DNA of 63,641 nt, taken from positions 1 to 63,641 of IMG/VR virus record IMGVR_UViG_3300024502_000002; one strand, 5' to 3'. This DNA comes from a virus (Duplodnaviria > Caudoviricetes). The stretch's first letter is position 1; the number at the start of each line of letters is the position of its first letter. The notes under the pieces were generated by a model. That model worked only from the letters and a program-made list of their open reading frames with translations. It made no database searches and was not told the DNA's origin. The translations under genes were made by a program, and so were the position numbers. This document shows positions 10,346 to 45,812 of this stretch, piece by piece.

Positions 10346-11287
10346 ATGTCAATGTCTGAAGCTGATTCTAGTATCGCATCCCAACCTGCTCGACTCAAGT
10401 ATGGATTTGTCCGTGAAGATGGAAAAATCTTTGTAAACTATCGGGCAAAAGGCCCTCCATACTGGGTTAGCCCTCAAAAGTTCGAGGAGTTGAGGCAAAA
10501 GGGCAGAGACAGGCGGAAAAACAGAACCCCCGAACAGAAGAAAATTCTCGCTAAAAAGTGCAAGGAGTGGCGCGCTAAAAATCCAGAAAAGAACGCTGAA
10601 TTGAAAAAGGCATGGAGGGCCGCCAACAGGGGTAAAGAGCTGCTTTATGCCAAGTCATGGCGACAAAACAATCCAGATAAGGTGGCTCAACACGAAAGAA
10701 CCAAATATCTTAGACATAAAGAAAGCATCTTGGCTAAGAACAGGGTTTACCGTCAGAAAAACAAAGATGTCATCTCTGCCCAAAAGAGGGAATATATCGC
10801 TCGGCGCAGAAGGGGCTTTTCTCCATATGCAATACAAATGAGAGTTCGTGCTCGTTTTGCTAACGCCATGAACCGCAAGGGCTGGTCAAAAGACGCACCT
10901 ATGCAGGCAATCGTTGGCTGCTCTTGGGAGGAATTGAAATCTCACTTGGAGTCGAGATTTTTACCCGGCATGACATGGGAGAATCGTTCTGAGTGGCACA
11001 TTGACCATATTATCCCATGCTCCACCGCTTCCACTGAGGAGGAGATGAAGAAGTTATTTCACTTCTCCAACCTCCAACCCCTCTGGAAAGAAGACAACCT
11101 CAAGAAAGGCGCGAAACTACTCAATACCTCCCCTGATGCGCCCGAATCGACTGGAACAGCCCATCGTCGTCATCATCAGATTCCGCTTTCTTCGTCTCCG
11201 CCTGTCGCCCATTTGAGCTTGGTGATGCCGCAGAAAGCGCCTTATTGGCCTTCTTTAGCTCCGCCATCTCTTTCTTCATGGAGTTAA
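10346..11287 (+). CDS. HNH-type endonuclease inserted antisense between scaffold and MCP
   Basis: Basic repeats then WHIDHIIPCS...FHFSNLQPLWKEDNLKKG. Confidence 0.8.
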   Translation: MSMSEADSSIASQPARLKYGFVREDGKIFVNYRAKGPPYWVSPQKFEELRQKGRDRRKNRTPEQKKILAKKCKEWRAKNPEKNAELKKAWRAANRGKELLYAKSWRQNNPDKVAQHERTKYLRHKESILAKNRVYRQKNKDVISAQKREYIARRRRGFSPYAIQMRVRARFANAMNRKGWSKDAPMQAIVGCSWEELKSHLESRFLPGMTWENRSEWHIDHIIPCSTASTEEEMKKLFHFSNLQPLWKEDNLKKGAKLLNTSPDAPESTGTAHRRHHQIPLSSSPPVAHLSLVMPQKAPYWPSLAPPSLSSWS

Positions 11288-13024: not shown

Positions 13025-15292
13025 TCACTGTTTTCTTTGCATCTGATTGGCCTGCATCCGCAATTTCAGAGCATTCTGAGCGGTCTGCTGGGCGAACTTG
13101 GCGTCATTCTGAGCAAGCTGTTGAGCATTCTTTTTGGCGGCAAAATCCAGTTCAAGAGCCTTCTTTTGCACATCAAGAGTGGCGAGTCGTGCCGCCGCAT
13201 CCACGGCCTGACGGTCGGTGGAGAGCATCGGGGCTTCACCCTCCTGTCCAGCTGCCTCTGCCGCTTTACGCTGCTCGGCTTCGAGATGTTTCGCACCGTT
13301 GATGACTGTTTCTCCAAGCTGTTGAAGAGCTTCTTTGTAGATTGGGAAGAGGGGATTGTTTTGCGACACAAACTGCATGTGCTCACCGGCATGAGTCCAT
13401 ATCATTTGCATTTGTGGAATAGAATCCTCAAGCTCAACCTGAAGTTGCTTAATCTGTTCGTTAATCTGCTCAAGAAGATTTAAATGTGCCCCAACATGGA
13501 TGACGTGGTTCTGGTTCGGCTCAATGACGGCTGGCTGACCAAGGCCCATCAGGGCGTTCTCCATGTTCGCAATCTGGAGGTCCATCGGAGGACGCTGACC
13601 GGGCTGCTTCGGAACAAGCATGTTCGCGTAGGCGACATCTGTGTAGGAGGCAAGATAGGTGCGAAGGGCGAGTTGCTGACCATCGGTGTCCAGACGGTCC
13701 ATGACGCTCATTACGGCACCAGCGGCGGTCCTGCGCTCCTGAACACTGCCCTTCCCAAGCCCCTGATTGATTTCGATACCGTCGATGTCCACGGCGTAAA
13801 TCGCTTCCATCGGGACTCCGCGATTCTTGCAGCGTTTGCGGAACTGAAGCACTTCCTTCCAGCCCCCGTGTCCAGCCGGGTAATCCTTGTTGCAGGCGCG
13901 GCGAACAATCTCCTTGAAGTCGTTCTTCCAGCTATCGAAGAAAAGGTCAATACCACCCGTAGCGAGGCGACCCTGAACGGCATTCGCACTCTGGATTTCC
14001 TCGGCGGTCTTAGGCGTCTTGCCGTCCTGACTCATTCCCACACGGAACGAACTGGTCCGCATGTTGAAGATGTTGGTCAGCGAGCCAATGGCTGGAATCA
14101 GGCTTTGCTGAAACGGAACATGTGGCATTTCAAGGAAAGTTGTTCCCTGAGTCACCACATTGTAAGGCCCACGAGGCTGAATCATCTGGTCGATCACCGC
14201 ATCTTCAGACGAAGATTGCAGGGTTGGTGTCGATGCAACAATCGTCTGATCCATGAACTTACAAGTCAGAAGATTCAGCATCACCGAGCCGTTGTGGCCG
14301 TTCCACGCATTGCCGCGAAGGGCGTAGAAGTCACCATTGCTGCCCACGCCGTAGGTGTAGGCCGTGATGAGTTCGCTCATGTGGTTGTAAACGCCCTCAC
14401 AACGATAAAGCCAGTCGCCCTGACCGTCATAACGCCCAATGACATGAGTAATGGTGCCGTCCACTTCAGCCACCCATCCGTGGATTAGCTGGACCGTCGT
14501 GGCGGAAAGACCGCTGAAATAGTCCTGATCCTTGTAGGTTTCCTGCGTTTCCTGCGGATTCGAGGTGTCAGGCGAACGCTGCTGGGCGGTCTTGATTGCC
14601 TCAAGCACGGCATCGGGATTCCAGCCAGCCTTGATAGCTGCATCCCGGTTCTCAATCTTGCGATAAAGCTCGGACGGAAGCATGTCCACCTTGCAAACAA
14701 CGAGGTCCACATCGTTGATGGTCGCCCGAGTGCGGCGAGGGAGTTTCAGGTATTGCAGGTCGTAAACCTTCCAGCGCCAGTCGTATTTGTCCTCACGGAA
14801 CGTAAACGACACACCGAACATGGTGAATTGGTGGACGCAAAGCTGAATGTTGAAGTTGAAGTCACTCCAATTCTTGACCATTCGGGAGATTTCCTCCGAG
14901 ATGATCTGCCCCCATTCGAGGCGCTGTTGCTCGTCCCCGTAGGTGGTCGGAACGCTACCAAACTGGTCAATCGCGTGGAAAAGCTGGATGTAAGGCTCCT
15001 CAACCTCCTTTTGGCTCTGAGTCAGGTAGCCAAAGTTGACGTTGGTGCGACCCGCCATTCCGTGAATGCGGTCCCGGTTGTCGGAAAAAGGCGGATTTCC
15101 GTCCACCTCGGACTGAACGAGCGCCCTTGCTCGCATGGCTTGGAAATCAGCGATAAACAGGCCGTTCCAGACGCTTTGGAGTGCAGACGGGTTCTTAACT
15201 CGATTCCGAAGGATGATTTCGCCGTCCTCTGCATCAACGATGGGCGGAAGAGTCGATGGATTGTTCGGCTGATTAGAAAGCTGCAAGGACAT
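13025..15292 (-). CDS. Portal protein
   Basis: About 755 aa; KTAEEI motif, QNHVIHVGAH motif and Q-rich coiled C-terminal tail as in podovirus portals; heads the capsid module. Confidence 0.78.
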   Translation of the reverse strand: MSLQLSNQPNNPSTLPPIVDAEDGEIILRNRVKNPSALQSVWNGLFIADFQAMRARALVQSEVDGNPPFSDNRDRIHGMAGRTNVNFGYLTQSQKEVEEPYIQLFHAIDQFGSVPTTYGDEQQRLEWGQIISEEISRMVKNWSDFNFNIQLCVHQFTMFGVSFTFREDKYDWRWKVYDLQYLKLPRRTRATINDVDLVVCKVDMLPSELYRKIENRDAAIKAGWNPDAVLEAIKTAQQRSPDTSNPQETQETYKDQDYFSGLSATTVQLIHGWVAEVDGTITHVIGRYDGQGDWLYRCEGVYNHMSELITAYTYGVGSNGDFYALRGNAWNGHNGSVMLNLLTCKFMDQTIVASTPTLQSSSEDAVIDQMIQPRGPYNVVTQGTTFLEMPHVPFQQSLIPAIGSLTNIFNMRTSSFRVGMSQDGKTPKTAEEIQSANAVQGRLATGGIDLFFDSWKNDFKEIVRRACNKDYPAGHGGWKEVLQFRKRCKNRGVPMEAIYAVDIDGIEINQGLGKGSVQERRTAAGAVMSVMDRLDTDGQQLALRTYLASYTDVAYANMLVPKQPGQRPPMDLQIANMENALMGLGQPAVIEPNQNHVIHVGAHLNLLEQINEQIKQLQVELEDSIPQMQMIWTHAGEHMQFVSQNNPLFPIYKEALQQLGETVINGAKHLEAEQRKAAEAAGQEGEAPMLSTDRQAVDAAARLATLDVQKKALELDFAAKKNAQQLAQNDAKFAQQTAQNALKLRMQANQMQRKQ

Positions 15293-15349
15293 TCGGCAGA
15301 GTATTCCCAAAGTTGGGCATCACAAGCCGATTATTTCGTTGACTAACTC

Positions 15350-15682
15350 ATGGCGTCAAGCACTCTTTTCACGGAAATGGCAGAAAAACCCTCAAGCAGG
15401 CAGCGAAAATGGCAACTCAAACAGCGAGATGCGGGACTGTGCTCAATCTGCCCAAATCCCATCGAGAAGTGGGGATTATGCCAGACTCATGCTGAGATTG
15501 CCACAGAGCGAAGGCGTAGATCAAAAGGAGTTTCGCGTCCTTACCTGCCAAAATGGGTATGGCAGGCTGTCGATTGGAGCATGGGACACAAAAAAATTGC
15601 CTCCATGATGGGCGTCACGGAGGCAACTGTCAGGTATCACTGGAAGAAGACTACTGTTTCTCCACCCAAGCCTCAATCTTAG
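15350..15682 (+). CDS. Zn-finger plus HTH protein, putative regulator
   Basis: CSIC...LCQTH and KKIASMMGVTEATVRYH; divergent from portal; start may be 15377. Confidence 0.65.
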   Translation: MASSTLFTEMAEKPSSRQRKWQLKQRDAGLCSICPNPIEKWGLCQTHAEIATERRRRSKGVSRPYLPKWVWQAVDWSMGHKKIASMMGVTEATVRYHWKKTTVSPPKPQS

Positions 15683-15959
15683 CAAGATATTTGTCGCCGA
15701 TGTTGTAAAGGCCGTTGGCAAGCAGTGATAGAACAGCCTCAGAGATACCAATCTCTGCCGCAAGCTGGTAGTTTTTCATACGACGATCTTTGCCAGACTG
15801 CCGGATGAGCTTGCCAAGCTGAATTACCGTGGCCTTCATCGCCTTGTTGTGATCGCGGAAAGTCTTCCTTGCTTTGGCCTCAAGCTCCGCCACCTCACGG
15901 TCACGGGTTTTTATTTTGGTTTTGAGTTCGCGGAGGTGTATTTTGAGTTCTCGGTTCAT
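15651..15959 (-). CDS. XRE-like HTH protein
   Basis: NYQLAAEIGISEAVLSLLANG. Confidence 0.75.
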   Translation of the reverse strand: MNRELKIHLRELKTKIKTRDREVAELEAKARKTFRDHNKAMKATVIQLGKLIRQSGKDRRMKNYQLAAEIGISEAVLSLLANGLYNIGDKYLAKIEAWVEKQ

Positions 15960-16090
15960 ATAGGTGGGAAACTATGCCTCGTTTATTCAACAACTGGCTC
16001 CGACGAGGCTCGCGGAAGTTGCGTGTCTGATTCTTTTTGCTAGGTCCATCATCACGCACGAGGCGTCCATAGGTCCATCGTCAAAATTAC

Positions 16091-16333
16091 TTAACAACCC
16101 CAACGCTTGCGGGCTGCTTTGCCGCGCTCACCAGTCCATGAAGCAGAGCGGGCACAGAAACTGGCCTTTCGAGCTTTGTCGGCCTCAGTTTTAGGGTGTG
16201 GAGCTGGGGCTTTAAGATTACTGCCAGTAGCAGCGTTATACTTTGCGCGGCCCTTAGCGGTCAAACCCGCGCCCTTCGACACAGGAAGTTTCTCGCCTCG
16301 ACCGACTGATAGTGATGGGGATTTCTTTGCCAT
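16091..16333 (-). CDS. Small basic conserved phage protein (DUF6321-like)
   Basis: GLTAKGRAKYN...NLKAP...RKASFCAR...RKRWGC motif. Confidence 0.75.
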   Translation of the reverse strand: MAKKSPSLSVGRGEKLPVSKGAGLTAKGRAKYNAATGSNLKAPAPHPKTEADKARKASFCARSASWTGERGKAARKRWGC

Positions 16334-16363
16334 GAGTAAATGTGCTTTCTATTCCCGTAAACT

Positions 16364-16771
16364 TCAAGCGGAAAGACGCTGTTTCAACTGGTATTGGCGC
16401 ATCTCACTTTGATCGCAGATTCCTTGAAGCAAGTTCTGCGTGCCCTGCGAAGCCTTCTTCACCGCCTCATCAATCATGCCACAAAGGTCTTTTTCCCCTT
16501 TAAGAATGGCGCGGAAGAAAGGCTCGGGCTTTGTCTCGTCAGGCAGGATGTCGGACATCTTGGACGCCGCGATGTTGATCTTGGCGAGGCTCAACTTCTC
16601 AGTCCCAAGGCCAATCACACGCTCCACGGCGCTGTCGTAGGCCGCTTCATAATCCGGGTAAAGTTTGCCAAGGAACTTATGGTCCTCGAAAAAAGTCGGT
16701 CCTTTGATGACGTTGTGCGCCCGATGAGCAAGGAATTGAAGGGCGCGAAGCTGGGTGATGAGTGAGTCCAT
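16364..16771 (-). CDS. Ferritin/Dps-like four-helix protein
   Basis: AHRAHNVIKGPTFFEDHKFLGKLY...D..VER, Dps-like pattern. Confidence 0.78.
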   Translation of the reverse strand: MDSLITQLRALQFLAHRAHNVIKGPTFFEDHKFLGKLYPDYEAAYDSAVERVIGLGTEKLSLAKINIAASKMSDILPDETKPEPFFRAILKGEKDLCGMIDEAVKKASQGTQNLLQGICDQSEMRQYQLKQRLSA

Positions 16772-16950
16772 GAGGGAGGATACTCAAGTTTGCCGGATCG
16801 CAACTCGTTCATTCACGGGCCGTGGTTCCTTTTCAGGCAGCATCGACAGTCCAGTCATCAGCCGAAAACGATTGCCGGGGTGAATCTGCTGGAAACTACG
16901 ACGCTCCTCGCGGCGTTCCGACTCGGATTTAGGGGTGGCAAGTTGGTGGT

Positions 16951-17169
16951 TCATTTCTTCTTCGGTTTAACCCCTCGCTTCACCAGACCGCATTTCCCGC
17001 ACGACTTCTTTTCGCCACGGGTGAGGTGTTGGTAGTAAGCCTCGGTTTCCTTGCCGCAGTCGCAGCGACAAAGCCATTTGGAGTTTGAGTGTTCATTGCG
17101 TTCAAGGAAGCTGACTACTTTCAGACGGCCAAAGCGACGGTTTACGAGGTTTTTGGGAGGGTATGCCAT
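16951..17169 (-). CDS. Stand-alone N-terminal domain of AP2/HNH-associated endonucleases
   Basis: RRFGRLKVV...WLCRCDCG...KSCG; no nuclease domain. Confidence 0.75.
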   Translation of the reverse strand: MAYPPKNLVNRRFGRLKVVSFLERNEHSNSKWLCRCDCGKETEAYYQHLTRGEKKSCGKCGLVKRGVKPKKK

Positions 17170-17207
17170 TTAGGCGATACTTACGGTAATTTGAGGGGAT
17201 GGCAAGA

Positions 17208-17261
17208 AGAGAACCGTGTCGCTACTCCGAACGCTGCGCGTCGGAGAGCTGGGTGTTATGC
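17208..17261 (+). mobile_element. attC-like site 1
   Basis: AGAGAAC-CGTGTC-GCT(A)CTCCGA(A)CGC-TGC-GCG TCGGAG AGC-TGGGT-GTTATGC: R'' and R' cores, imperfect inverted repeat with two bulged bases. Confidence 0.75.
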
Positions 17262-17965
17262 AGAACGGAAAGAACAGCCCGCCCAAGGTATTCGGTGTAA
17301 GCGGGCGGGATGCACTCTTTCAGCCCCTCGCATGTCATCCAGTCGATGCCGTAGGCGAGCGGGGCGTTTTTCACGCTCTTCGGTTTCATCCCGAGGGCGA
17401 AGCGTTTGGCGCGGCTCGCCTTGCTGGCGGTCGTCACCAGAAGCGGGATTTGCGAGTGGTCGCAGGCGCACGGTGCCGCAATCGGAAAGCTCGTCTCGAA
17501 ATAGCGGTGCCTTTGCGTCCGCAGCCCGAACATCGAGCCGCAGAGCATCACAGGGTTTTCCAGTTCGTGCCGCGCCCCAGCTACGTTCTCGATGATGTAG
17601 GGCTTGCCCAGTTCGCGGAGCATCGCCCGCAGTTGCGGAATCAGCTTCGGATAGTTGGCGCGGTGAGCTTCCGGCGTCAGGTGAGAGTAGCCCTGGCACG
17701 GTGGCGAGGCGTGGATTGCGTCGTATTCGTGGCCATGATCGCGCAGGTATTCTAGGGCATCGGCCAGTATGAAGCGGTGTGGGTTGCGCGGTTGCGGTTC
17801 GATGTCCACGCCTGTTATATCGAAGCCCGCCCGAGCGTATCCGGCCCCCGCGCCGCCTTCGCAGCAGAAAAGGTCGAGCAAACGGAAAGACGGAGCATAA
17901 CAAGTCGCCAGAGGCAACGAGCCGCAGCCGTCCGTTTTCGATGGGTTCTCAGCGAGATTTATCAT
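17222..17965 (-). CDS. C5 cytosine DNA methyltransferase (cassette A)
   Basis: LDLFCCEGGAG (motif I), HASPPCQ (catalytic PC), IENV, RHRYF. Confidence 0.9.
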   Translation of the reverse strand: MINLAENPSKTDGCGSLPLATCYAPSFRLLDLFCCEGGAGAGYARAGFDITGVDIEPQPRNPHRFILADALEYLRDHGHEYDAIHASPPCQGYSHLTPEAHRANYPKLIPQLRAMLRELGKPYIIENVAGARHELENPVMLCGSMFGLRTQRHRYFETSFPIAAPCACDHSQIPLLVTTASKASRAKRFALGMKPKSVKNAPLAYGIDWMTCEGLKECIPPAYTEYLGRAVLSVLHNTQLSDAQRSE

Positions 17966-18009
17966 GGTTAGTATTCTGTGCGGCTCGCGCCTCAGCTTGG
18001 GTGTTCAGG
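17895..18009 (+). mobile_element. attC site 2
   Basis: GCATAAC-AAGTC-GCC(A)GAGGC..CGAGCCGCA / TGCGGCTCG.GCCTC AGC-TTGGGT-GTTCAGG; canonical 5/6-nt spacers; MTase ATG in the loop. Confidence 0.88.
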
Positions 18010-18068
18010 GCACTCACGAAAGTCTTTCGGCCTGCGTGAGTGCCCGTCACAGTGCGTTCACAGTGCGT

Positions 18069-18467
18069 TCACAGTTTCAGGCCGTCGGCGGTGGGTTCGA
18101 TCTTCGTGTTGCTCGGGTCTTTGGAGTTCGGATACGGGTTTTCCTGTGCTCCTGGGTTTTCTTCGTTGATGGCTTTTAGGTCCATCCCGAGCCACATCAC
18201 TGCCTCTTGCAGCTTAGTGACGCAGATGGAGCGTTCACGGCTTGCACGAGGGTTATCATCAGACGTGAGCCTTTCGCGCTTCGTGTCAGATGCGAGTTTG
18301 AGGCGTTGGATGATGGCGTCGATGTCGCGGCGCAGTTCTTTGTCTTGGATGATGGCGGTTTCGATTGCTGTCATGTTGTCGTTTGCGTTTTGGTTTTTAC
18401 TTCGGCAGCCTGGGGTGCCGTGCCCTGAACCATCGGCTGATGCCAACGGCTCGAAAGTATCTGTCAT
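18069..18467 (-). CDS. Acb2/Tad1-like helical-hairpin protein (cassette B)
   Basis: SRERSICVTKLQEAVMWL resembles the RExSLAxTKLxEAxMW motif of this family. Confidence 0.6.
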   Translation of the reverse strand: MTDTFEPLASADGSGHGTPGCRSKNQNANDNMTAIETAIIQDKELRRDIDAIIQRLKLASDTKRERLTSDDNPRASRERSICVTKLQEAVMWLGMDLKAINEENPGAQENPYPNSKDPSNTKIEPTADGLKL

Positions 18468-18515
18468 GTAAGCGGAGGTCTATCGCTCGCCGTCGGCATA
18501 GCCGGGTCGTTCAAC
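18424..18515 (+). mobile_element. attC site 3
   Basis: CCTGAAC-CATCG-GCT(G)ATGCC..CGGC / GCCG..GGCAT AGC-CGGGTC-GTTCAAC; ATGA stop/start junction in the loop. Confidence 0.88.
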
Positions 18516-18778
18516 CTCGCATCCACCTTTTCCAAGTAGCACTCCTTCATCGGATACTTGCCCTGAAGAATGCGGAAGATGAACTGGGGTTGAAAACCAA
18601 TCACCTTGGCGAGGTGGCTTTTTGACCAGCCTTGGCGCATGCGGAGCTGTTCAATGGCGTTGATGCGCGTTTGATTGGCTTTTTTTAGCAGTTCGGCAGC
18701 TTGGCTCTCAAGATTGGAGGCGCAAACAAACTCAGTGTGAATGAACGGGTGTTGGGACTGGATGTTGGGGAGGTTCAT
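18464..18778 (-). CDS. XRE-like HTH protein
   Basis: LRMRQGWSKSHLAKVIGFQPQFIFRILQG; C-terminus encoded by attC3. Confidence 0.72.
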   Translation of the reverse strand: MNLPNIQSQHPFIHTEFVCASNLESQAAELLKKANQTRINAIEQLRMRQGWSKSHLAKVIGFQPQFIFRILQGKYPMKECYLEKVDARLNDPAMPTASDRPPLT

Positions 18779-18790
18779 ATTGTGTTGCGA

Positions 18791-19516
18791 TTAACTATAT
18801 GGTGGTAAATCAGCTTGGTCAAGAACCCATCTAGGACTTTTTAGAATCATTTCGTTGTCACCTTCCAACAAGAAGCGGTCCCTGTGTCTTCCAAGAAAGA
18901 CTCTTTTCCTTTTGGCTAAAACGTCGATAATTTCATCGTCTATAAGAGATGAGTTATATTCAGCTACAGCATGTATGAAAATTTCATCAATAGATGCCTG
19001 AAGAGCAAGCAATCTACGGTCCGATATAATCTTGTCCAAAACCACATCGGCATTATCTACACTTTTATGAATCTCCCAAAAAATATCAATAAATCCCTTC
19101 ATCGCTTTTTCAGACCTTGATGCCAAGGTTGCCATCAAAGTATCGAATGAACGCTTCTTCTTACCCCTTTTGCCTTTGCATAGACCCCTAGCGTGAGCGT
19201 CCTTAATGTTTTGAACATTGGTTCCTAATTCAAGATGGTCTGGATTTGTGCAGACCTTATTGTCGCAGCGGTGCATTACGACCATACCATTAGGTATGTC
19301 TCCTTTATGGATCATATAGGACAACCTGTGGGCCAATACGTTTCTATTCTCCACCTTGAGTGTGCCATACCCATTTACCAACGACCCCTTCCAGCCCCAG
19401 CATTGACCTAATCCGGCATAATGATGATTAGACTGATCTGGCATGACGCCAGAGTCCCTATCAAGGTTGTAAAAATACAATTCACTACCATGCTCGATGA
19501 TTTTGTTTTTATCCAT
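18791..19516 (-). CDS. HNH endonuclease
   Basis: CWGWKG...AHRLSY...VMHRCDNKVCTNPDHLELGTNVQN. Confidence 0.9.
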   Translation of the reverse strand: MDKNKIIEHGSELYFYNLDRDSGVMPDQSNHHYAGLGQCWGWKGSLVNGYGTLKVENRNVLAHRLSYMIHKGDIPNGMVVMHRCDNKVCTNPDHLELGTNVQNIKDAHARGLCKGKRGKKKRSFDTLMATLASRSEKAMKGFIDIFWEIHKSVDNADVVLDKIISDRRLLALQASIDEIFIHAVAEYNSSLIDDEIIDVLAKRKRVFLGRHRDRFLLEGDNEMILKSPRWVLDQADLPPYS

Positions 19517-19703
19517 TGTGGTATTTTTGGTTAAATTTGATCCGCATTCCGCTCATCCACGCTTTCCATTCAATTCTGTCTCGTTCCCACTCCTCCTCGG
19601 CGATTTGATTGATGATTCGATTCCGCCTCAATTCATCCACAACGCCATTCAAAAGCCTTTCAGCCTTTTCCTTGGCTTTTGGTCTGAAATAGTCCGGTAT
19701 CAT
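19509..19703 (-). CDS. Hypothetical protein
   Basis: Coupled ORF within the operon. Confidence 0.6.
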   Translation of the reverse strand: MIPDYFRPKAKEKAERLLNGVVDELRRNRIINQIAEEEWERDRIEWKAWMSGMRIKFNQKYHNG

Positions 19704-20371
19704 TTAAAAATGGAGGTAAAGTGGGGTGAGCGGTATCCGGCAATCGCCGCCGACCTTAGTTTGGAAGCAACCTCTTGTGGAGTTTGAGTGGTCAAAGCAG
19801 CCTCAGTGTCTTGAAATAGCGCCTTGACCATCGCAGCGGAAAATCGAACTCGATCTTGTTTTCTCTTTGGCTCAGTCGCCTTTGCGTATCGGACGTTGAT
19901 AAAATTGATTAAGCCTTCTTCGACATCTGGACCGAAATGAGCAGGTATGGGCAACGTCATTGCATCATCTGCCTCGTTTTTGTATGATTCTTGCCATGTC
20001 AGGCCGTTTTTACGATCCTCACGATACCGTTTCATGTAGTCTCGCATGTATTTGTTCTTCTGCTCAGGCGTGCGAATGTCTCGATACTTGAAGTAATTCA
20101 GCAGCTTGAAGCCACCACTAACTCTCTCAATTCTGCGACCGTCGTAATCTGGCGTTCTGGATTTAGGGTCTGGTGAGGTAAAGGCTCGGATGGCGTCATC
20201 GGCCTCCTCTTTTGTGATATTTGCCACCCGATAGAGAGAGGCTTCCGTAACCGGACTGATTCCATCAGTTCCGCAAGTAACCATGAGGGCGGTCCAAGCG
20301 ATACGGTGATGATACGGACCCTCCCAAACTGAAGATGAAACTAGCTCGCAATGAGCTTTGATGAACGACAT
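19700..20371 (-). CDS. Replication initiator / replisome organiser-like protein
   Basis: N-terminal SSVW...SPDPKSRT..DGRRIERV.GGF.LLNY.KYR pattern seen in phage replication proteins. Confidence 0.6.
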   Translation of the reverse strand: MSFIKAHCELVSSSVWEGPYHHRIAWTALMVTCGTDGISPVTEASLYRVANITKEEADDAIRAFTSPDPKSRTPDYDGRRIERVSGGFKLLNYFKYRDIRTPEQKNKYMRDYMKRYREDRKNGLTWQESYKNEADDAMTLPIPAHFGPDVEEGLINFINVRYAKATEPKRKQDRVRFSAAMVKALFQDTEAALTTQTPQEVASKLRSAAIAGYRSPHFTSIFK

Positions 20372-20555
20372 TTCATCATGTAGCGTTAATTGTGTTAATC
20401 GTCAACTGTATTTTACAAATAAATCAGTGAACCCCTAGCTTGGTGAAAACTAGGGGTCCTCATCTTATATATTATGTTAGATTAACGCGTGTAAATCCTT
20501 GGCCATCAAGGAAATACCCCATGTTTTTGACTAACTTTGACTTTTACACGTTAAG

Positions 20556-21215
20556 CTACGAAAAGTCCTCCCCATACTCCAGCTTCAGGATCAGCCTCAA
20601 CTCATGCATGGCCTTGCGGATGTCCTCGGCCTTGTTCTTCGCTCGGTGACGGCAGACGCGCTTTACTACACAGCCCTCCAGAAACGACAGCTTGTTGGCA
20701 TGGATGAACTCGACCGGCTGGATGGCGAGGCCCTTGTAGTGGTCGCCGCCTTCTTGTTGGGAGAGTGGGTTGCAGGACTCGATGGCCTCAACGTGCAGTT
20801 TTTGATGAACTTTGGCGTCATCGGCTTTGATGGCGAACCAGACATCTTCGGGTGTAAATGCACTCAATTTTTTAGCAGTGGATACATACCACTCGGAACA
20901 AGTAGCAGGCCAAGACATATAGTTATTTGGCAACTCCTCCGGCATCTCGCTCCGATGCCTCAAAACGTAGCCCTTGGGAGGCTGCGGTCCTACTTCGGGA
21001 ATGACGGACTCAGGTTTTGTTTCCGGGATGGCGTAGAGGGATTTTACCTCAAAGCCATAAAGCTGACCGCCAATGCGACCGGAAGGAACCCATTCAGGCT
21101 CATCCTCAAGACATTGCGAAGACGACCAGATTAGCGCCCCTTCCGGCACGCAGTCCTTGATGTCCTCTCCTTTGACGAGCTTGTATCCTGCGGGTGGTGT
21201 GGGTGTGTTGCTCAT
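20556..21215 (-). CDS. DUF3310 (SaV-like) domain protein
   Basis: C-terminal QQEGGDHYK...IQPVEFI...FLEGCVVK...EDIRKA. Confidence 0.82.
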   Translation of the reverse strand: MSNTPTPPAGYKLVKGEDIKDCVPEGALIWSSSQCLEDEPEWVPSGRIGGQLYGFEVKSLYAIPETKPESVIPEVGPQPPKGYVLRHRSEMPEELPNNYMSWPATCSEWYVSTAKKLSAFTPEDVWFAIKADDAKVHQKLHVEAIESCNPLSQQEGGDHYKGLAIQPVEFIHANKLSFLEGCVVKRVCRHRAKNKAEDIRKAMHELRLILKLEYGEDFS

Positions 21216-21508
21216 GGCTTAATCCGGTAAATGTTGCGTTTTGCTCCGTGGAATCCCTCTGATCCTTTCTCAACAGTGAGAAATCCAGCCCCAACAAGGG
21301 CTTTGAGGGTGTTGTTTGCCGTCTCCCGTGAGAGCTTCAGCCTGTCTGCCACGTCGTAAATGGTGGCTTGGCCCATTTCGGCAATCACTGCCAAGGCAGC
21401 GACTGTTGATGCGGAGCGGATGTTGTTCTCCATTGCGAAGAACAGGTCAATGATGGTCGTGGTCTGGATGTGTGTCATGGGGCTTAAAAGGATTCTCAGG
21501 CACGACAA
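21212..21508 (-). CDS. Winged-helix DNA-binding protein
   Basis: TIYDVADRLKLSRETANNTLKALVGAGFL; true start probably MTHIQT. Confidence 0.72.
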   Translation of the reverse strand: MSCLRILLSPMTHIQTTTIIDLFFAMENNIRSASTVAALAVIAEMGQATIYDVADRLKLSRETANNTLKALVGAGFLTVEKGSEGFHGAKRNIYRIKP

Positions 21509-21592
21509 ACCACAGGTCGAGGTAGTCGCGGAAGGTCGGTCGCTCCCTACTCTGGCATGAGGCCAGCAAGAGGCAGAGGGCTAGGAGTGGTT

Positions 21593-21790
21593 TCATCGCT
21601 TGAGTTGCTGAAGAAGGTCGTAGCAGGCGGCTTCGTAGGAGGGGCCTTTGCCAGCATGAAGCAAATCCATGCCAAGCGGGTCTTTGTAGATTTCCGCATA
21701 CCAGCGACGGCATAACTGGTCTTTGAAGACAACCAATGCGTAATCGGAGTCATCAACTAATTGAAGAAGGGATGCGTGGGCTGAGTTCAT
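21593..21790 (-). CDS. Hypothetical protein
   Basis: ATGA-coupled ORF. Confidence 0.55.
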   Translation of the reverse strand: MNSAHASLLQLVDDSDYALVVFKDQLCRRWYAEIYKDPLGMDLLHAGKGPSYEAACYDLLQQLKR

Positions 21791-22164
21791 TTGAGGAAGG
21801 GTTGGAGTTTGGCGAGGGCATGATGGGCGTCGTCCATTGTTTCACATTCTAAGTCTAGATTGCAAACTGACACGCCGAGCATGTATTTTAGACATCCATC
21901 AAGAGCTGCATGCGCCTCCCGGATCGCCTCGCGCATGGCGGCAATCTCCTTCGCCGGATCAGCCATTTTGGAGCAGGCGTTGACGCAGGCAATGATTCGC
22001 CCTGCTTTAGCCCATGCAACAGAACTATCCTCACCAACAAGCTCATGGATGTCGGCAAAGTAAGCTCCTTTGCCATCAAACAGGCTTGTGGAAAAATGGC
22101 CTTCTTGAATAGTCCACGGCTCGCCGTAGTCGGATGTTGAGGTATTCATATCGTGGTGTGTCAT
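21787..22164 (-). CDS. Hypothetical phage protein
   Basis: EPW...RIIACVNAC motif common in small phage ORFs. Confidence 0.7.
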   Translation of the reverse strand: MTHHDMNTSTSDYGEPWTIQEGHFSTSLFDGKGAYFADIHELVGEDSSVAWAKAGRIIACVNACSKMADPAKEIAAMREAIREAHAALDGCLKYMLGVSVCNLDLECETMDDAHHALAKLQPFLK

Positions 22165-22201
22165 ATCGAGGTGGTAACGCTACTCGCTTAATTGATAAGA
22201 T

Positions 22202-22414
22202 TCAAGTGGAAGGAGGTTCTTTTTTCTTCCGTGGCATGCACCCACAGGAGCGAACATGTCCTCGCGTGAGGTTCTGGTAGTAGGCTGAAATCTTCGTGCC
22301 GCATTTACACTCGCAGGTCCATCGGGAGTTGCCGAATCGGTTGCGGCTTTCGTAGGCGATGACGGTCAGAAGGCCGAAGGTCTGCTTGAGAAGGGATTTG
22401 GAGGCGCGGCCCAT
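22202..22414 (-). CDS. Second stand-alone AP2/HNH-associated N-terminal domain
   Basis: QTFGLLTVI...NSRWTCECKCG...AYYQNLTRG..RSCGC; paralogue of 16951..17169. Confidence 0.75.
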   Translation of the reverse strand: MGRASKSLLKQTFGLLTVIAYESRNRFGNSRWTCECKCGTKISAYYQNLTRGHVRSCGCMPRKKKEPPST

Positions 22415-22419
22415 TTGGT

Positions 22420-22917
22420 TTAGTCCTTCACAAGTTGACGCGCCTGTTCCACCTGTTCCTCGGTGATGTGGCCTGCCGCGATGAGGATGGCGAGGATGCG
22501 GTCGGTGGTGGGAGATTCGGTCTTCATGGGGGCGGATTCGTGGGGGCGGTAGAAGAGGATGTCGAGATCACCTCTGGTAGTTACTTTCCATTCTGGAGAA
22601 AGTTGACTAGAAAAAACCAATCCATTTCGACACACAATATCCACATTCACTTCGTCCCCCACAGGCGCAGGATCACCCGGCTTGTGAGCATGCCAAGGCT
22701 GGCCATTGCCGGGTAGGTCGGGGGTGATGTAGGTGAAAAGTAGGCAATCAGCCATTAGTTTTATGGAGTCAGAAAACGATGCTTGGCTGCATTTAACTCT
22801 CCCTTCATTCCACACTCGGACTGGAATCATCTTTCCATACTCCTCATTACATACCATCCTCCAGCCAGCGGGGATTTTATCGAGAGGGGCGTTTTCGGGG
22901 TTTGCGGGTGTTTTCAT
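22420..22917 (-). CDS. Hypothetical protein
   Basis: Likely start MKTPAN, ATGA-coupled. Confidence 0.6.
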   Translation of the reverse strand: MKTPANPENAPLDKIPAGWRMVCNEEYGKMIPVRVWNEGRVKCSQASFSDSIKLMADCLLFTYITPDLPGNGQPWHAHKPGDPAPVGDEVNVDIVCRNGLVFSSQLSPEWKVTTRGDLDILFYRPHESAPMKTESPTTDRILAILIAAGHITEEQVEQARQLVKD

Positions 22918-23243
22918 GGGCGCTTGTAGCGAGGGAACAAATGGCAGATTAAAGGGATGTAGGACATCAAGGTGCGACGGCCTTTGCCGAGATATGATGG
23001 TTGTTTCTCCCAAAACTCTTGGAGTGACATCCAGACGCCACTGCTAGAAAGCCAGTTTGGTCTGGTGAAATAAACGACTTCAGGAGTGGATTCTGTGATG
23101 TAGAAAAGATCGCGGTTGAATTCCCATTTGAGGACATACCACTCGCCGGGTAGTGGCTGCTTGGGCGAACCGATGAGAATGACTTCGGGGTAAGATGGTT
23201 GGTGTGTTTTCATGCGTTTTGATCGGTGTATTTGGCCTTCCAT
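22914..23243 (-). CDS. Hypothetical protein
   Basis: ORF within the operon. Confidence 0.55.
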   Translation of the reverse strand: MEGQIHRSKRMKTHQPSYPEVILIGSPKQPLPGEWYVLKWEFNRDLFYITESTPEVVYFTRPNWLSSSGVWMSLQEFWEKQPSYLGKGRRTLMSYIPLICHLFPRYKRP

Positions 23244-23686: not shown

Positions 23687-24187
23687 TCAGGGGATGGGTG
23701 GATTCCGCCAGAAGCAGTTGTCGGGGGTGAAGTCGATGGAAGGGTTGAGGCGGGCTAGGCGGGTGCCTGCCGGGTATGGCCCCATGTCATCCACAAAGGC
23801 GTCAAAGCTGTCCCTCCACCTCTGGCAGACCCTGATCCCCTTCGCCCCGTAGTTGCGGTAGCCGGGATTGCGCTCGTTGTAGCAGCGGGTGAGCATCGAG
23901 TAGTAGATGCGGCAAAGAGGGTTCTTGTTCGTGCGCTGATGGCCTTCTGGACGCTCACGACGCTTGGCATGGACTTCTGCACGGTAGCAGCCACAGGACG
24001 TTGTGGAGCCTCGCATGAGGCCGGAGTAGCGGACCTTCTTTTCCTTCCCACAGGAGCACCGGCACAGCCAGAGGGAGTCGTGGGAAGCCCGCCCTTCGTA
24101 GGACAGGACCGTCAGGCGGGAAAAGACTTGGCCTGTCAGGTCGTGGTAGCGAGGAAGGGGTGGGTCTTCGAGTTGATCTTCGGTCAT
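23687..24187 (-). CDS. AP2/HNH-type endonuclease-like protein, possibly inactive
   Basis: DLTGQVFSRLTV...SCGC...RCYN...GIRVCQRW; LARLN replaces the usual IDRIN. Confidence 0.75.
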   Translation of the reverse strand: MTEDQLEDPPLPRYHDLTGQVFSRLTVLSYEGRASHDSLWLCRCSCGKEKKVRYSGLMRGSTTSCGCYRAEVHAKRRERPEGHQRTNKNPLCRIYYSMLTRCYNERNPGYRNYGAKGIRVCQRWRDSFDAFVDDMGPYPAGTRLARLNPSIDFTPDNCFWRNPPIP

Positions 24188-24410
24188 ATAAAACAACTCT
24201 AACGCGGAAGGAGAGAGGTGGCAAATGATAAGATTGAAGGAGGGGAGATTTGTTGGATGGGGCTGATACGCATACCAAGGGCCACGTTTTACCCCCGCCA
24301 CACCCCCGGCGCGGTCGTCTCCCGCTCAGACTGGACGCACTAACAAAAGAGCACTAACACGGCAGTTCCCAACAAGATCACTAAGCCAGACTTTCTCGGT
24401 GTTCACCCGA

Positions 24411-36237: not shown

Positions 36238-37598
36238 CAAACCTCACCACCGAAGAACTCCTCGCCACGCTAAACGCCCCTCTTCCTGCCTCAAAGGAAG
36301 CCGAGGAGGGCATGATTTCGTGCCTGTTCTTCAACCCCAACTGGTGCGAACAAGCTCCTCCGGCTGAGCAGTTCTACCATCCCTCGCGCCGTCTGATCTA
36401 CTCCACGATCATCAACCAGTTCAACAAAGGACTCCCGGTGGACGTGATGGCAATTACGCACGTTTTCCGAGAGATGGGCAAGCTGGACGAAGTTGGCGGA
36501 CCTCATTACATCTCCGACCTTTACTCGTTCGCCATCCTCCAATCTCATTTTTCATACTATTCAGAGATTCTGAAAAGGAACTACCAGTTTCGTTGCATGA
36601 TTCATGCCTGTGCCGCTGGAATCCACGCTATAAGGCGATTTAACGAGTCGGAGGACGTTTCCGCTATGGACATACTCGGAGGGGTCCAAAAGGCTGTAAA
36701 TGAGGCTATTCTGGACGACGGAAGCCCCGATGTAGAATTTCGGCCACTCCCCGACATCATTCACGCGGTTGTTGACCAAATGGAGGACCGGGCAAAGAAC
36801 CCCGGAAGGATTCCCGGCGTCTCGACTGGTTTTCTCAAACTTGACGAGTATTCCGGCGGCTTGGAGGACGGAACTCTTACTGTCATCGCCGCCAAGCCAT
36901 CGGAGGGTAAATCGGCCCTTTGTCGCCAGATTGTCGAGAATGCCTGCCTCAGCAACCATCTTTGCGACATCTTTACCGTGGAAATGACGGATATTCAGGA
37001 GGTGACGCGTCTTTTGTGCTCTCAGGCAGGGGTTGACGCCCAAAACATGAAGCTGGGAATGCTTACCCGAGGCGAGCAACTGAGCCTAACCGCCAAGATG
37101 GCAAAGGTGGCGCAGTGGAATCTGCGGGTAATTGATTCGGCAAACCTAACCATTGAGAAGATTTGCCGCGCCGTGATCCGACGCTCGAAACAGCGGAAAC
37201 CGGGCCAGAAATACATTGTCGTAATCGACTACATCCAGATTTGCTCGACGGCTGAAAACACCGCGAACCGGGAACGTGAGGTGGCTCACATCACCAAAAC
37301 GGCCAAACAATGTGCCAAGGCCACCGGGGCTTGTTTCTTGATGCCCTCACAGCTTAATGACGCCAACGAGGCCCGAGAATCCCGCGCCATCGAGCAGGAC
37401 GCAGACAACTTCTGGATGATTGTCGATGTTGAGGACAAGGAACCAAAGAAGCCGTGGCAGAAAAAGAAGGAAGATGAACCAACCGATGATCGCGACCTGT
37501 TCCTGAAAAAGACCCGCAACGGCCAGCGGCGAAAGAGGGTTCCGCTTCGTGCCAACATGCGCTACTTCCGATTTGAACCGAGAGGGACTGAAGAATGA
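36234..37598 (+). CDS. dnaB: Replicative DNA helicase
   Basis: AAKPSEGKS Walker A, VIDYIQ, SQLN, RESRAIEQDAD, KTRNG. Confidence 0.95.
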   Translation: MTNLTTEELLATLNAPLPASKEAEEGMISCLFFNPNWCEQAPPAEQFYHPSRRLIYSTIINQFNKGLPVDVMAITHVFREMGKLDEVGGPHYISDLYSFAILQSHFSYYSEILKRNYQFRCMIHACAAGIHAIRRFNESEDVSAMDILGGVQKAVNEAILDDGSPDVEFRPLPDIIHAVVDQMEDRAKNPGRIPGVSTGFLKLDEYSGGLEDGTLTVIAAKPSEGKSALCRQIVENACLSNHLCDIFTVEMTDIQEVTRLLCSQAGVDAQNMKLGMLTRGEQLSLTAKMAKVAQWNLRVIDSANLTIEKICRAVIRRSKQRKPGQKYIVVIDYIQICSTAENTANREREVAHITKTAKQCAKATGACFLMPSQLNDANEARESRAIEQDADNFWMIVDVEDKEPKKPWQKKKEDEPTDDRDLFLKKTRNGQRRKRVPLRANMRYFRFEPRGTEE

Positions 37599-38197
37599 AA
37601 AAGCCATTTTACACACCAAACCGAAACGAAAAATTAGCCGCCGATTGGGGTTACACCGTATCAAATGACGGCTCTGTAATTACTGGTCCAAACGGTAATA
37701 TTTACGCACAGAGTCGCAACTCATCCGGCCATCTGGTGTTTTCTTTTGGTCCCAAAAAGGACAGGAAGAAATGCCAAGTTCATCGCTTTGTGGCGTGGTT
37801 TAAGTTTGGTGAAGCGATTTACGAACCAAACATTGTGTGTCGGCATCTGGACGGAAATCCGGGTAACAATCATCCAGACAACATTGCTTTAGGTAGCCAA
37901 TCAGACAACATGATGGACAGGCCCGCGAAAGATCGCCACTCTCACGCTTGGAATACTTCAAGGCATACTCTAAAACACGACCATGAGGCAGTGATTGAGT
38001 TCTATAAACAAAATGGGTTCAAAAAGACGATGGTTCAATTCGGCATATCAAGCAAAGGAACCTTGTCATTCATTATAAACAAAACACAGACCGCAAAGCC
38101 AGTTTTACCAAGCGAGAGGCCGAAGAGGAAGACTAATACGACCCCATCCGCCGAACCTACTCCAAACTCGTTTGACACACTCCACCAATTAACGTAA
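37595..38197 (+). CDS. HNH endonuclease
   Basis: VHRFVA...CRHLDGNPGNNHPDNIALGSQSDNMMD. Confidence 0.88.
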   Translation: MKKPFYTPNRNEKLAADWGYTVSNDGSVITGPNGNIYAQSRNSSGHLVFSFGPKKDRKKCQVHRFVAWFKFGEAIYEPNIVCRHLDGNPGNNHPDNIALGSQSDNMMDRPAKDRHSHAWNTSRHTLKHDHEAVIEFYKQNGFKKTMVQFGISSKGTLSFIINKTQTAKPVLPSERPKRKTNTTPSAEPTPNSFDTLHQLT

Positions 38198-38741: not shown

Positions 38742-38777
38742 TTTGCAAATCTCACCTTGACGCCTAATCTGCCTTGA

Positions 38778-40649: not shown

Positions 40650-40833
40650 ACATCAAAAAACTTTTCAGTCCATCATCTCATTCCGATCCTGACGGAGTGC
40701 CCACTGAGCCTAAATCAGGTTGGGCGTCTATCAACACAGAGGAAGGCACTCCGAGCGCCGATCATCAAATCGCAGAAAAGGTCAAAATACACCGCGAGGA
40801 ACAACTGAAAGCTCACATTTTAAGCAAGCTCTG

Positions 40834-41169
40834 ATGAACCGCCGCTCTATTTTCAAGACTACTGCTGGTGCTCTTTGCGCTTCTGCTATTGAGGTTTGCG
40901 GCGTTGAGCCTACAATGCCCAAAGTAGGAAAGGTTGTCGCTAATCCAGAGTGGATGACTGCTGAATATGAAGACTTTTTACTCGCCTGCATTGATCCTCG
41001 AAATTCAAATTATACGTTTGTCCGGGTAAAAAGAGAGATGGGGACAACATCGTCTGCTATCACGCTTGATGATCCCATGAAAGGCATTTACGCCACTCAA
41101 ATTGGTAGATCAAATCTCATCGACGGCCAGTATGTTGAAGTTTACCCTTACATTGTTGAACAAATTTGA
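40834..41169 (+). CDS. Protein with twin-arginine-like N-terminus and MCP-like motifs
   Basis: MNRRSIFK; NPEWMTAEYE; RSNLIDGQYVEVYPY. Confidence 0.65.
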   Translation: MNRRSIFKTTAGALCASAIEVCGVEPTMPKVGKVVANPEWMTAEYEDFLLACIDPRNSNYTFVRVKREMGTTSSAITLDDPMKGIYATQIGRSNLIDGQYVEVYPYIVEQI

Positions 41170-41250
41170 CATCTGCCATCAAATAGCATAAATGGCGCTG
41201 GCCTGATCGCGTCAACAATCAGGCCAGCTAACCTCAACCATGAAAACACC

Positions 41251-44330: not shown

Positions 44331-44349
44331 ATTTCCAGCACACACACCA

Positions 44350-45438: not shown

Positions 45439-45440
45439 TT

Positions 45441-45812
45441 ATGAAACTCTATACTCTCGCACGCACACGGTCGGAATGCTTCGGACAAGGAGATTTCCGT
45501 GATGTCCAGTCGATCAGCCGGTTTAAGGACCAGTTTCCGCCTGTTTTCCTAAGTGAGGACGCCGCGAAGGAATGGCGGGAGCAGATCACCAACCCCCTGA
45601 CCAACGACGACCTTTTGGAGCGTTTTCATTGGTGTGAGTGTCAAGTGATTGAACTTGATCTTCAACGCGGCTCGTTCATCACTGAGGTAGAGAAGGCTGC
45701 TATCGCGTTTGCGAATGCCTTTACCGCCGAAAACGAGGACGCTGCGGAGGTTGAAAAGACCGTCCATGCCTTGATTGGGAGTCTGGAAGCAAATGGATGG
45801 AAGGCCGCTTAG
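45441..45812 (+). CDS. Hypothetical protein
   Basis: Last ORF of the + strand operon. Confidence 0.6.
   Translation: MKLYTLARTRSECFGQGDFRDVQSISRFKDQFPPVFLSEDAAKEWREQITNPLTNDDLLERFHWCECQVIELDLQRGSFITEVEKAAIAFANAFTAENEDAAEVEKTVHALIGSLEANGWKAA

Follow-up and report, generated by a model that had tools for sequence, protein, structure and literature searches.

A variable slot in an uncultured phage genome holds a candidate nucleotide-signal sponge on a mobile unit beside an orphan C5 DNA methyltransferase

The window analysed here is the whole of IMG/VR record IMGVR_UViG_3300024502_000002, a complete uncultured phage genome of 63,641 bp with direct terminal repeats. Within it, a slot of 1.25 kb holds two small genes, referred to below as cassettes B and A. 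Judged by sequence, cassette B is a divergent member of the Pfam family Acb2_Tad1_hairpin and cassette A is a compact, horizontally acquired orphan C5 cytosine DNA methyltransferase. Both come from families with known counter-defence roles, as had been proposed in an earlier reading of the DNA (the sequence-only reading), and both of the open reading frames (ORFs) it named are present on the minus strand where it placed them. We consider it reasonably probable that this is an accessory slot in an integrase-less phage, filled by two independently acquired counter-defence genes, a sponge on a mobile unit (unit B) and a methylase. The features on which the argument depends are as follows.

17258..18507, minus strand: variable slot holding cassettes B and A, 1.25 kb, from comparison with the related loci L104 and L094
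18069-18467, minus strand: cassette B ORF as first named, 132 residues
18069..18374, minus strand: probable true coding sequence of cassette B, 101 residues, Acb2/Tad1-hairpin family, candidate nucleotide-signal sponge (PF24729, Tad1 matches, start position)
18375..18467, minus strand: 5' extension of the 132-residue ORF, probably non-coding and part of the leader
18003..18512, minus strand: mobile unit B, comprising leader, sponge-like gene and 3' hairpin (limits of DNA similarity)
18392..18512, minus strand: structured mobile leader, ~122 nt (folding, covariation, 9 contigs)
18504-18489 and 18450-18434, minus strand: arms of the 16-bp leader stem
18008..18045, minus strand: 3' stem-loop of cassette B, GGGCACTCACG ... 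CGTGAGTGCCC (folding, conservation)
17222..17965, minus strand: cassette A, 247-residue ORF, compact orphan C5 cytosine DNA methyltransferase (PHROG 363, motifs, fold)
~17290-17880, minus strand: portion of cassette A common to homologues elsewhere
17222-17257, minus strand: final ~35 nt of cassette A, conserved phage backbone

Both cassettes lie within a minus-strand series of small genes, running from 24301 to 15651, upstream of a 761-residue gene. This gene may be the portal, judged by its size and position, and has no PHROG family match. Thirteen loci with a related portal-candidate gene (54-98% identity) were fetched for comparison, and both flanks of the slot, a helix-turn-helix (HTH) gene at 18464-18778 (-) and a CapR-like gene at 16951-17169 (-), were found only in L104 and L094. 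Homology of these two loci to the window extends to 18508 and 18502, respectively, and resumes at 17257. Between these points L104 carries 360 bp with a 112-residue ORF, and L094 carries 793 bp with a 246-residue ORF. Neither cassette gene was found in any of the 13 related loci. On the right-hand side, the junction falls within the 3'-terminal part of the cargo ORF, and different cargoes therefore end in the same ...(N)TQLSDAQRSE. The same accessory block contains DNA methylases of two other Pfam families in four of the 13 loci, namely N6/N4 enzymes of PF01555 in L092 and L103 and canonical members of PF00145 in L093 and L095, placed at or near the upstream side of CapR-like genes. With the window included, methylases of three families lie near CapR-like genes in 5 of 14 records.

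Cassette B had been taken to extend over 18069-18467. That ORF exists, and the gene itself most likely starts at Met32 and encodes 101 residues (18069-18374). This start is preferred because the ATG of the 132-residue reading is out of frame with the core in one homologous locus (L004), because the ~140 nt upstream of Met32 are conserved more than the coding sequence, and because five unrelated cargo genes behind the same leader begin at the Met32-equivalent position. The same three observations led us to reject the N-terminal extension as a real peptide. Most relatives are of ~100 residues (among the matches listed), and the sequence ahead of Met32 is A/C-rich, like that ahead of other genes in this phage. 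The translation includes ...PRASRERSICVTKLQEAVMWLGMDL..., and the motif SRERSICVTKLQEAVMWL, on which the sequence-only reading had based its comparison, is present.

The 132-residue ORF matches Pfam PF24729 (Acb2_Tad1_hairpin) at 26.3 bits (E 8.4e-6) and the 101-residue protein at 26.1 bits; the genome scan gave 25.9 bits, reported as 27.1 with neighbours in frame. T4 Vs.4, regarded as the canonical Acb2, reaches 71 bits over the full profile, whereas cassette B reaches 26 bits over profile positions 22-52 only. A homologue search recovered 4,026 proteins at E<=1e-3, with PF24729 present in 107 of the best 120 listed. A profile search against 1.84 billion representatives returned 879 clusters (50% identity) at E<=1e-3 and 409 at E<=1e-10, and in the ESM Atlas the nearest clusters are 90-100% viral (among the clusters listed).

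Comparison with solved structures points to Tad1. In a phmmer search of the PDB, all six sequences at E<=10 are Tad1 chains, the best being CmTad1 (8KBB, E 0.01). Profile searches raised the match to CmTad1 to 3.2e-4 with one alignment (A1) and to 1.1e-4 with a more diverse one (A6), which also found CbTad1 at 0.07, and every PDB sequence match with E<0.1 is Tad1. In Tad1, the counterpart of the cassette B motif is the second helix of the hairpin, with SRE....TKLQE..MW in common. According to the Tad1 paper, R88 and T95 of CmTad1 hold the three phosphates of the cyclic trinucleotides cA3 or cAAG at a three-fold interface, and the hexamer contacts are R88, K96, T95, Q98, E99, M102, W103 and K106. 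Mapped through the phmmer alignment onto the 101-residue numbering (the 8KBB chain numbering is offset by ten), CmTad1 R88/T95/K96/Q98/E99/M102/W103 correspond to R46/T53/K54/Q56/E57/M60/W61 of cassette B, so that seven of eight residues are identical, and K106 is replaced by M64. The proposed likeness to the Acb2/Tad1 hairpin therefore stands for the hexamer and cyclic-trinucleotide site of Tad1; on the Acb2 side, the PDB sequence searches returned no chain at E<=10.

The R-x6-T pair (R46/T53 in cassette B) is common to Tad1 and Acb2. In the literature on them, R90/T97 of CbTad1 and R67/T74 of PaMx33 Acb2 have equal spacing and a role in cA3 binding, and hhalign sets D61/T68 of T4 Vs.4 on the R46/T53 columns. 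Within the family of cassette B, two alignments gave conservation of R46 in 49/52 and 38/47 members, of T53 in 49/52 and 39/47, and of W61 in 52/52 and 46/47; Q56 and M60 are nearly always kept. The family also has invariant residues of its own in the diverse alignment (K12, R15, D19, G63 and Y81) and a conserved C-terminal tail, NPYPxSKDP...TADGLKL.

Domain fusions give independent support for the sponge reading. A Pfam scan of 40 extra-length family members found PF21825 in two, PF11195 (Tad2-like) in one and PF13876 in one, and in two further members the interhelical loop holds a PF21825 insertion. One of the 40 is fused to a PP-binding (phosphopantetheine-binding, acyl carrier) domain, which is unrelated to sponges. 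The fusion-bearing members are P0363, P0381, P0106, P0108, P0482, P0498 and P0440. A preprint on Sequestin identifies PF21825 as Sequestin, a validated sponge for 3' cyclic ADP-ribose (3'cADPR). It also equates PF13876 with Acb4, takes sponge-sponge fusion as a principle of discovery, notes fused proteins of this kind and reports tests of 84 proteins. In the family of cassette B, the Sequestin fusions are N-terminal or lie within the hairpin loop. The three partner families are all validated sponges.

The monomer of cassette B was modelled with a predicted local distance difference test (pLDDT) score of 84.8 as a two-helix hairpin (residues 3-29 and 46-72), with low confidence in the tail (73-101). 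A Foldseek search of the PDB placed Tad1 chains at ranks 1-7 (E 1.5-2.7, probability 0.77-0.89), with superpositions at a root-mean-square deviation of 2.1-3.0 A over 56-63 columns. In the viral library BFVD, one family member matched at E 5e-3 and nothing else at E<0.7; the matching entry is already named 'Acb2/Tad1 hairpin domain-containing protein' in UniProt. The fold check that the sequence-only reading had suggested thus ranked Tad1 first, but with E values of 1.5-2.7 only. The fold match is not decisive because helical hairpins of any kind score as highly with a second aligner, and the modelled monomer is a generic helical hairpin for which structure search does not discriminate either way.

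Comparison of DNA between contigs supports the sponge gene as a discrete mobile unit. Over 510 nt, unit B shares 92% identity with L002/L141; its identity with L004 is 76%, and the flanks are without similarity. The similarity (window 18512-18003) starts ~140 nt upstream of Met32 and stops just past the 3' stem-loop; homology ends at window position 18003 for L002 and at 17993 for L004. The genes upstream are unrelated in these three contexts, yet each ends ...NDPAMPTASDxxPLT because unit B overlaps their last 15 codons, and in the window the leader overlaps the last 15 codons of the HTH gene (18464-18778). The unit starts and ends at GAAC(G). Its 3' stem-loop (dG -29.8, z -3.1) is kept in L002 and L004 and, with no T-run behind it, does not qualify as a classical intrinsic terminator. 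The contig L141, within which L002 lies, belongs to a relative of this phage; it runs collinear with window 38743-45777 and 45803-46614 (70-78% DNA identity) and carries the cassette B unit (92% nucleotide identity) in a 1.2-kb insertion (L141:7365-8591) at the equivalent of window ~45.78-45.80 kb. The window has no cassette at that position (45777/45803). The insertion in L141 also holds a second, diverged leader followed by an 81-residue ORF. The other leader-bearing contigs contain more distant homologues of window genes (25-72%).

The leader is itself strongly structured, with a folding free energy of -36.9 kcal/mol (z -3.9). Across 12 copies, 96.4% of the cells in the 16-bp helix are paired, with five pairs showing changes on both sides. 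Over the structure as a whole, none of 500 shuffles matched the observed paired share or covariation score, and slid controls paired in 23-48% of cells. The 29-nt core of the leader was found in nine IMG/VR viral contigs, twice in three of them, and copies stand in tandem in L142, L145 and L149. By nhmmer there are three copies in L145, up to five in the contig of L004/L149 (three of these at E 0.008-0.31), one in L101/L102 and a single copy in the window. The leader stands at a fixed distance from the ATG of six different small ORFs: the sponge-like gene (window, L141, L149 and L145) and ORFs of 74, 105, 70, 99 and 86 residues. These five other cargoes, and the ORF behind a weak leader copy in L149, gave no usable Pfam or PHROG match. 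For the leader cargoes and the slot ORFs of L104 and L094 together, no family was assigned at the thresholds used, bar two weak matches. The cassettes may not all be anti-defence genes. No Rfam match at E<=1 was found in 16800-19000, and a description of the leader was found neither in Rfam nor in the literature on PeSL (promoter-early stem-loop) cassettes, the two places looked. A search of 18375-18512 (-) for promoter- or terminator-like sites, made with a sigma-70 consensus that may not be that of the host, also found none.

Two smaller observations concern the edges of the unit. At window 18050-18071 (-), an 11-nt unit, TGAACGCACTG, which opens with the sponge-like gene's stop codon, is duplicated in tandem; it is single in L002 and L004. 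The stretch right after the 3' hairpin, 17966-18007 (-), contains GAACACCCAAGCTGAGGCGCGAGC, which is similar to the leader's initial ~25 nt (GAACGACCCGGCTATGCCGACGGCGAGC) and may be a truncated leader copy ahead of the methylase gene; a full leader begins at the equivalent point in L141 and L149.

Cassette A was named an orphan C5 DNA methyltransferase in the sequence-only reading, and this was borne out. It matches PHROG 363 ('DNA methyltransferase') at E 8.5e-38 and Pfam PF00145 at E 3.7e-4 (20.5 bits), the latter over motifs I-VI in the N-terminal half only; a precomputed PF00145 match is present in many of its relatives. A database search found 7,984 relatives at E<=1e-5 among 8,000 candidates scored, mostly of 200-250 residues. 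The C5 motifs I, IV, VI and VIII are all found, as LFCCEGGAG, SPPCQGYS, IENVAG and RTQRHRYF, and an alignment of 23 family members shows no variation in PPCQGYS, IENV and R-x-x-R-H-R. A profile of this alignment matched the prophage CP-933R methyltransferase 3G7U (1.4e-5) and M.HaeIII (3.6e-4) in the PDB. The AlphaFold2 model (pLDDT 84.3, predicted template-modelling score 0.80) gave 231 Foldseek matches at E<=1e-3, and the top matches in the PDB are only C5 DNA methyltransferases (E ~1e-8, probability 1.00), among them DNMT3A/3B, 3G7U, DNMT1, DNMT2 and M.HaeIII. Pfam and PHROG scans found no restriction endonuclease gene next to cassette A, and the term orphan therefore holds.

That cassette A is orphan, compact and horizontally acquired is indicated by its C5 family matches, the lack of an endonuclease partner, DNA similarity limited to its edges and an excess of GC. 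Its GC content is 0.613 against 0.522 for the whole genome, and in sliding 300-nt windows it stands at 0.60-0.63 with flanks at 0.38-0.56, as the sequence-only reading had noticed. DNA similarity to nine other viral loci stops at the edges of the gene (window 17880-17290), and in none of the nine is a CapR-like gene or another window neighbour found in a consistent position. The family is carried by 309 cultured-phage records, each <60% identical, mainly from phages of Mycobacterium (186), Streptomyces (52), Paenibacillus (28) and Arthrobacter (22), and the closest relatives (75-90% identity) are uncultured without exception. Orphan phage methylases commonly guard against restriction. By analogy with this common role, cassette A may methylate the phage DNA and blunt restriction.

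Several results weigh against the interpretation of the slot as a pair of counter-defence genes. The cassette B protein falls 0.7-0.9 bit below the 27-bit cut-off of PF24729, and the 20.5 bits of cassette A against PF00145 fall below the 22-bit gathering cut-off. No Acb2 chain appeared at E<=10 in the PDB sequence searches with cassette B. A profile check against Acb2, made by hhalign with the T4 Vs.4 sequence or family, gave probabilities of 55%, 50% and 76% over 15-27 columns with narrow profiles (effective sequence number 2.2-3.2). For reference, Hadary et al. (2025) assigned Acb2 by an HHpred probability >0.9 to 7UQ2/8H39, and that study reports tests of 46 Acb2 and 20 Tad1 proteins; its lists may already include a member of the cassette B clade. 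The cassette B model lacks the N-terminal beta-sheet of Tad1, no Foldseek match in the PDB reached E<=1e-3, and in a VIA-align comparison with 255 chains, generic helical hairpins scored Z 7-9 and neither Tad1 nor Acb2 was among the 50 rows listed. Residues of the Tad1 pocket for glycocyclic ADP-ribose (gcADPR) or cyclic dinucleotides (CDNs) are changed, CbTad1 N92 to R48 and R109 to D65; F82 and R113 of the same pocket lie outside the reliable alignment with cassette B. The cyclic-dinucleotide pocket of Acb2 includes Y11 and K26 in PaMx33, and residues 1-30 of cassette B contain no aromatic residue like Y11, although the N-terminal helix is not reliably alignable to Acb2. In cassette A, only ~45 residues separate motif VIII from the C-terminal IPPAYT helix, which makes the target-recognition part very small. 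Lastly, tblastn of 19 neighbouring window genes, the methylase included, against 80 sponge-like loci (up to 6 kb of flank on each side) found none of them except p204 in L021, which is unrelated. Because neighbours are not shared at these loci, cassettes A and B are independent passengers and not a conserved system.

For protein B, two other accounts must be weighed with these points. We regard it as somewhat unlikely, and still worth serious consideration, that it is a sponge for another signal, 3'cADPR or a cyclic dinucleotide, bound in a pocket formed by K12/R15/D19 and the NPYP tail. K12, R15, D19, G63 and Y81 are invariant in the diverse alignment and R46/T53 are not, Acb2 homologues with extra terminal elements bind 3'cADPR, R67/T74 of Acb2 are described as less conserved than its CDN site, and some family members are fused to Sequestin, a sponge for 3'cADPR. 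Against this, cassette B has not conserved the residues that the solved proteins use for CDNs and gcADPR. A protein that is no sponge at all, but a helical-hairpin protein with a structural or regulatory role that resembles Tad1 over one helix only, would fit the ~27 residues to which significant similarity is confined, the generic monomer fold and the PF24729 score under the cut-off. We find this quite improbable, since the match falls on functional residues, which are also the family's most conserved ones, Tad1 chains fill Foldseek ranks 1-7, the family is fused with three sponge families, and this is a small phage protein in an accessory region. A cyclic trinucleotide is, by analogy with the solved proteins, the best-supported candidate ligand of the sponge proposed here.

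The methylase may likewise serve another purpose, either guarding the DNA against the phage's own homing endonucleases, marking it for packaging or regulation, or being inactive. The genome encodes at least five HNH-type genes and an endonuclease VII-like gene, the methylases of relatives adjoin CapR-like genes derived from homing endonucleases, and the target-recognition region is tiny. Nevertheless, the catalytic motifs are invariant across the family, the CapR-like gene adjoining cassette A has no nuclease domain by Pfam and PHROG, and relatives have three unrelated methylase families in the same block, a pattern consistent with selection for methylation in general and not for one site; we hold a role other than anti-restriction to be unlikely. 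No better account of the two genes than that of the sequence-only reading emerged. That reading had further likened the array to bacterial integrons. The array's modular character stands, given the variable slot (L104 and L094), the mobile sponge unit and the methylases in 4 of 13 loci; the integron mechanism does not. An integron-like array, with cassettes captured and excised by site-specific recombination at attC-like hairpins, might be read into the stem-loops at all three junctions, the GAAC(G) bounds of unit B and the tandem leader-gene units of other phages. Yet a search of the complete genome for the tyrosine integrase family PF00589 came back empty, whereas each of the 14 control genomes gave a match, and PHROG scans of 74 ORFs found no recombinase or integrase. 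The three junction hairpins have no common sequence, the leader is present in one copy, and no attC-like repeat family was found in 15000-23000. The lack of an integrase, of repeated attC-like sites and of a second leader copy rules this reading out for practical purposes, and we give it very little credence.

On the interpretation we prefer, two independently acquired counter-defence genes in an accessory slot, the following mechanism can be proposed. We infer that the two-helix protomers of cassette B would form a hexamer through the TKLQEAVMW face and that this hexamer would sequester nucleotides of host immunity. The ligand would be a cyclic trinucleotide, such as the cA3 or cAAG of cyclic-oligonucleotide-based antiphage signalling systems (CBASS). 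As in Tad1 and Acb2, it would be gripped jointly by two protomers, one contributing R46 and the other T53. A second pocket is probably formed by the NPYP tail together with K12/R15/D19, the N-terminal residues specific to this family. Cassette A would methylate the phage DNA and thereby lessen restriction. Turnover of slot cargo may occur by recombination at the short conserved junctions and at leader repeats, possibly aided by the many homing endonucleases.

The rest of the genome gives some context. PHROG naming is sparse, with few of the 74 scanned ORFs receiving a family; the scans name an endolysin, exonucleases, a DnaB-like helicase, replication initiators, a tail protein, at least five HNH-type endonuclease genes and one endonuclease VII-like gene. 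Five HNH-type genes and one endonuclease VII-like gene are an unusually high load of the homing-endonuclease type for a 63.6-kb phage. These genes lie at:

18791-19516, minus strand
23687-24301, minus strand
31041-31658, plus strand
37595-38197, plus strand
41251-41943, plus strand
10346-11287, plus strand

The HNH-type gene at 18791-19516 (-) has a GC content of ~0.41, and the closest relative has a 43%-identical one in place. CapR is described as a DNA-binding zinc-finger domain domesticated from homing endonucleases. The CapR-like gene at 16951-17169 (-) encodes a stand-alone four-cysteine domain of 72 residues that matches the N-terminal part of the two full-length HNH genes (PHROG 374) at 23687-24301 (-) and 41251-41943 (+), and each relative has two or three small CapR-like paralogues. 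A Dps/ferritin-like protein is encoded at 16364-16771 (-) (PF00210 at 27.3 bits, PHROG 3636; 74-92% identity in closer relatives). An ORF of 2694 residues at 46378-54462 (-) has no PHROG match, and a second methyltransferase-like gene (PHROG 6608), unrelated to cassette A, lies amid unannotated genes at 58710-59303 (-). A Shine-Dalgarno-like motif stands ahead of 7 of 51 genes, a share equal to the background (0.14), and the host may belong to a lineage that makes little use of such sites. The nearest homologues of the sponge-like gene in metagenome-assembled genomes are in Verrucomicrobiota and Planctomycetaceae.

Taken as genes, the two cassettes are added members of known sponge and orphan-methylase families and no more. 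The clade of the sponge-like protein is large (879 clusters at 50% identity), its members are shorter than Tad1, and it is not close to the solved Acb2 proteins; its size, its own invariant residues (K12, R15, D19 and Y81) and this distance from Acb2 make its ligand range worth testing. The setting is more useful than the genes, with one slot of varied cargo, three methylase families in one block and a sponge cassette at two positions. The relatives together offer a concrete and testable view of how phages shuffle counter-defence genes. As for the leader, we tentatively suggest that it might be a structured mobile element not described before, belonging to a clade of uncultured phages. It would control expression (for example, as a site of RNA processing or stability) and also supply the homology by which small genes, counter-defence and ORFan alike, move from one genome position or phage to another. 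If true, it would be a PeSL-like system outside the T4 group, with an Acb2/Tad1-type sponge among its passengers.

Among known systems, Tad1 (CmTad1 8KBB-8KBD; CbTad1 7UAV, 7UAW and 8KBE-8KBH) is the sole solved family found by sequence with cassette B. Unlike Tad1, cassette B has no N-terminal antiparallel beta-sheet domain and consists of 101 residues with two helices only, and its long conserved tail, NPYPxSKDP...TADGLKL, was not seen in the Tad1 alignments. Acb2 (PaMx33; T4 Vs.4, PDB 7UQ2) shares with cassette B a length of ~90-100 residues, a protomer of two long helices and the family PF24729, which cassette B matches just below the cut-off, and the R-x6-T pair corresponds to R67/T74, which bind cA3. 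Cassette B differs from it in having no N-terminal tyrosine equivalent to Y11, and the profile-profile probability is 50-76%. Cassette A agrees in family and length with the short C5 methyltransferases of Mycobacterium, Streptomyces, Arthrobacter, Paenibacillus and Vibrio phages (PHROG 363), but its closest relatives are uncultured and the phage that carries it is lower in GC than the gene. Integron cassettes resemble the slot in their small, promoterless-looking cargo, imperfect hairpins at the bounds and variable cargo at one locus, whereas the slot is without an IntI-type integrase, an attC family or attI, and its junction hairpins are unrelated to one another.

By analogy, the closest known parallel to this architecture is the PeSL cassette. 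PeSL cassettes have reportedly been the subject of another study as well, by Comeau and colleagues in 2014. The leader differs from PeSL elements in having no sigma-70-like promoter, although the promoter type of the host may differ, in its 16-bp stem with a ~39-nt loop and no T-run, which is not a terminator-type hairpin, and in occurring in another phage lineage, with one copy only in the window. In the PeSL cassettes of T4-type phages, as described by Arbiol et al. (2010, PMC2839356), a short, conserved, regulatory-looking motif with a stem-loop likewise stands beside small ORFan genes in plastic regions, with tandem repeats in some genomes, exchange at the motif and the unit at different positions in relatives. 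Our overall verdict is that the window presents ordinary, known gene families in what looks like a PeSL-like mobile cassette setting.

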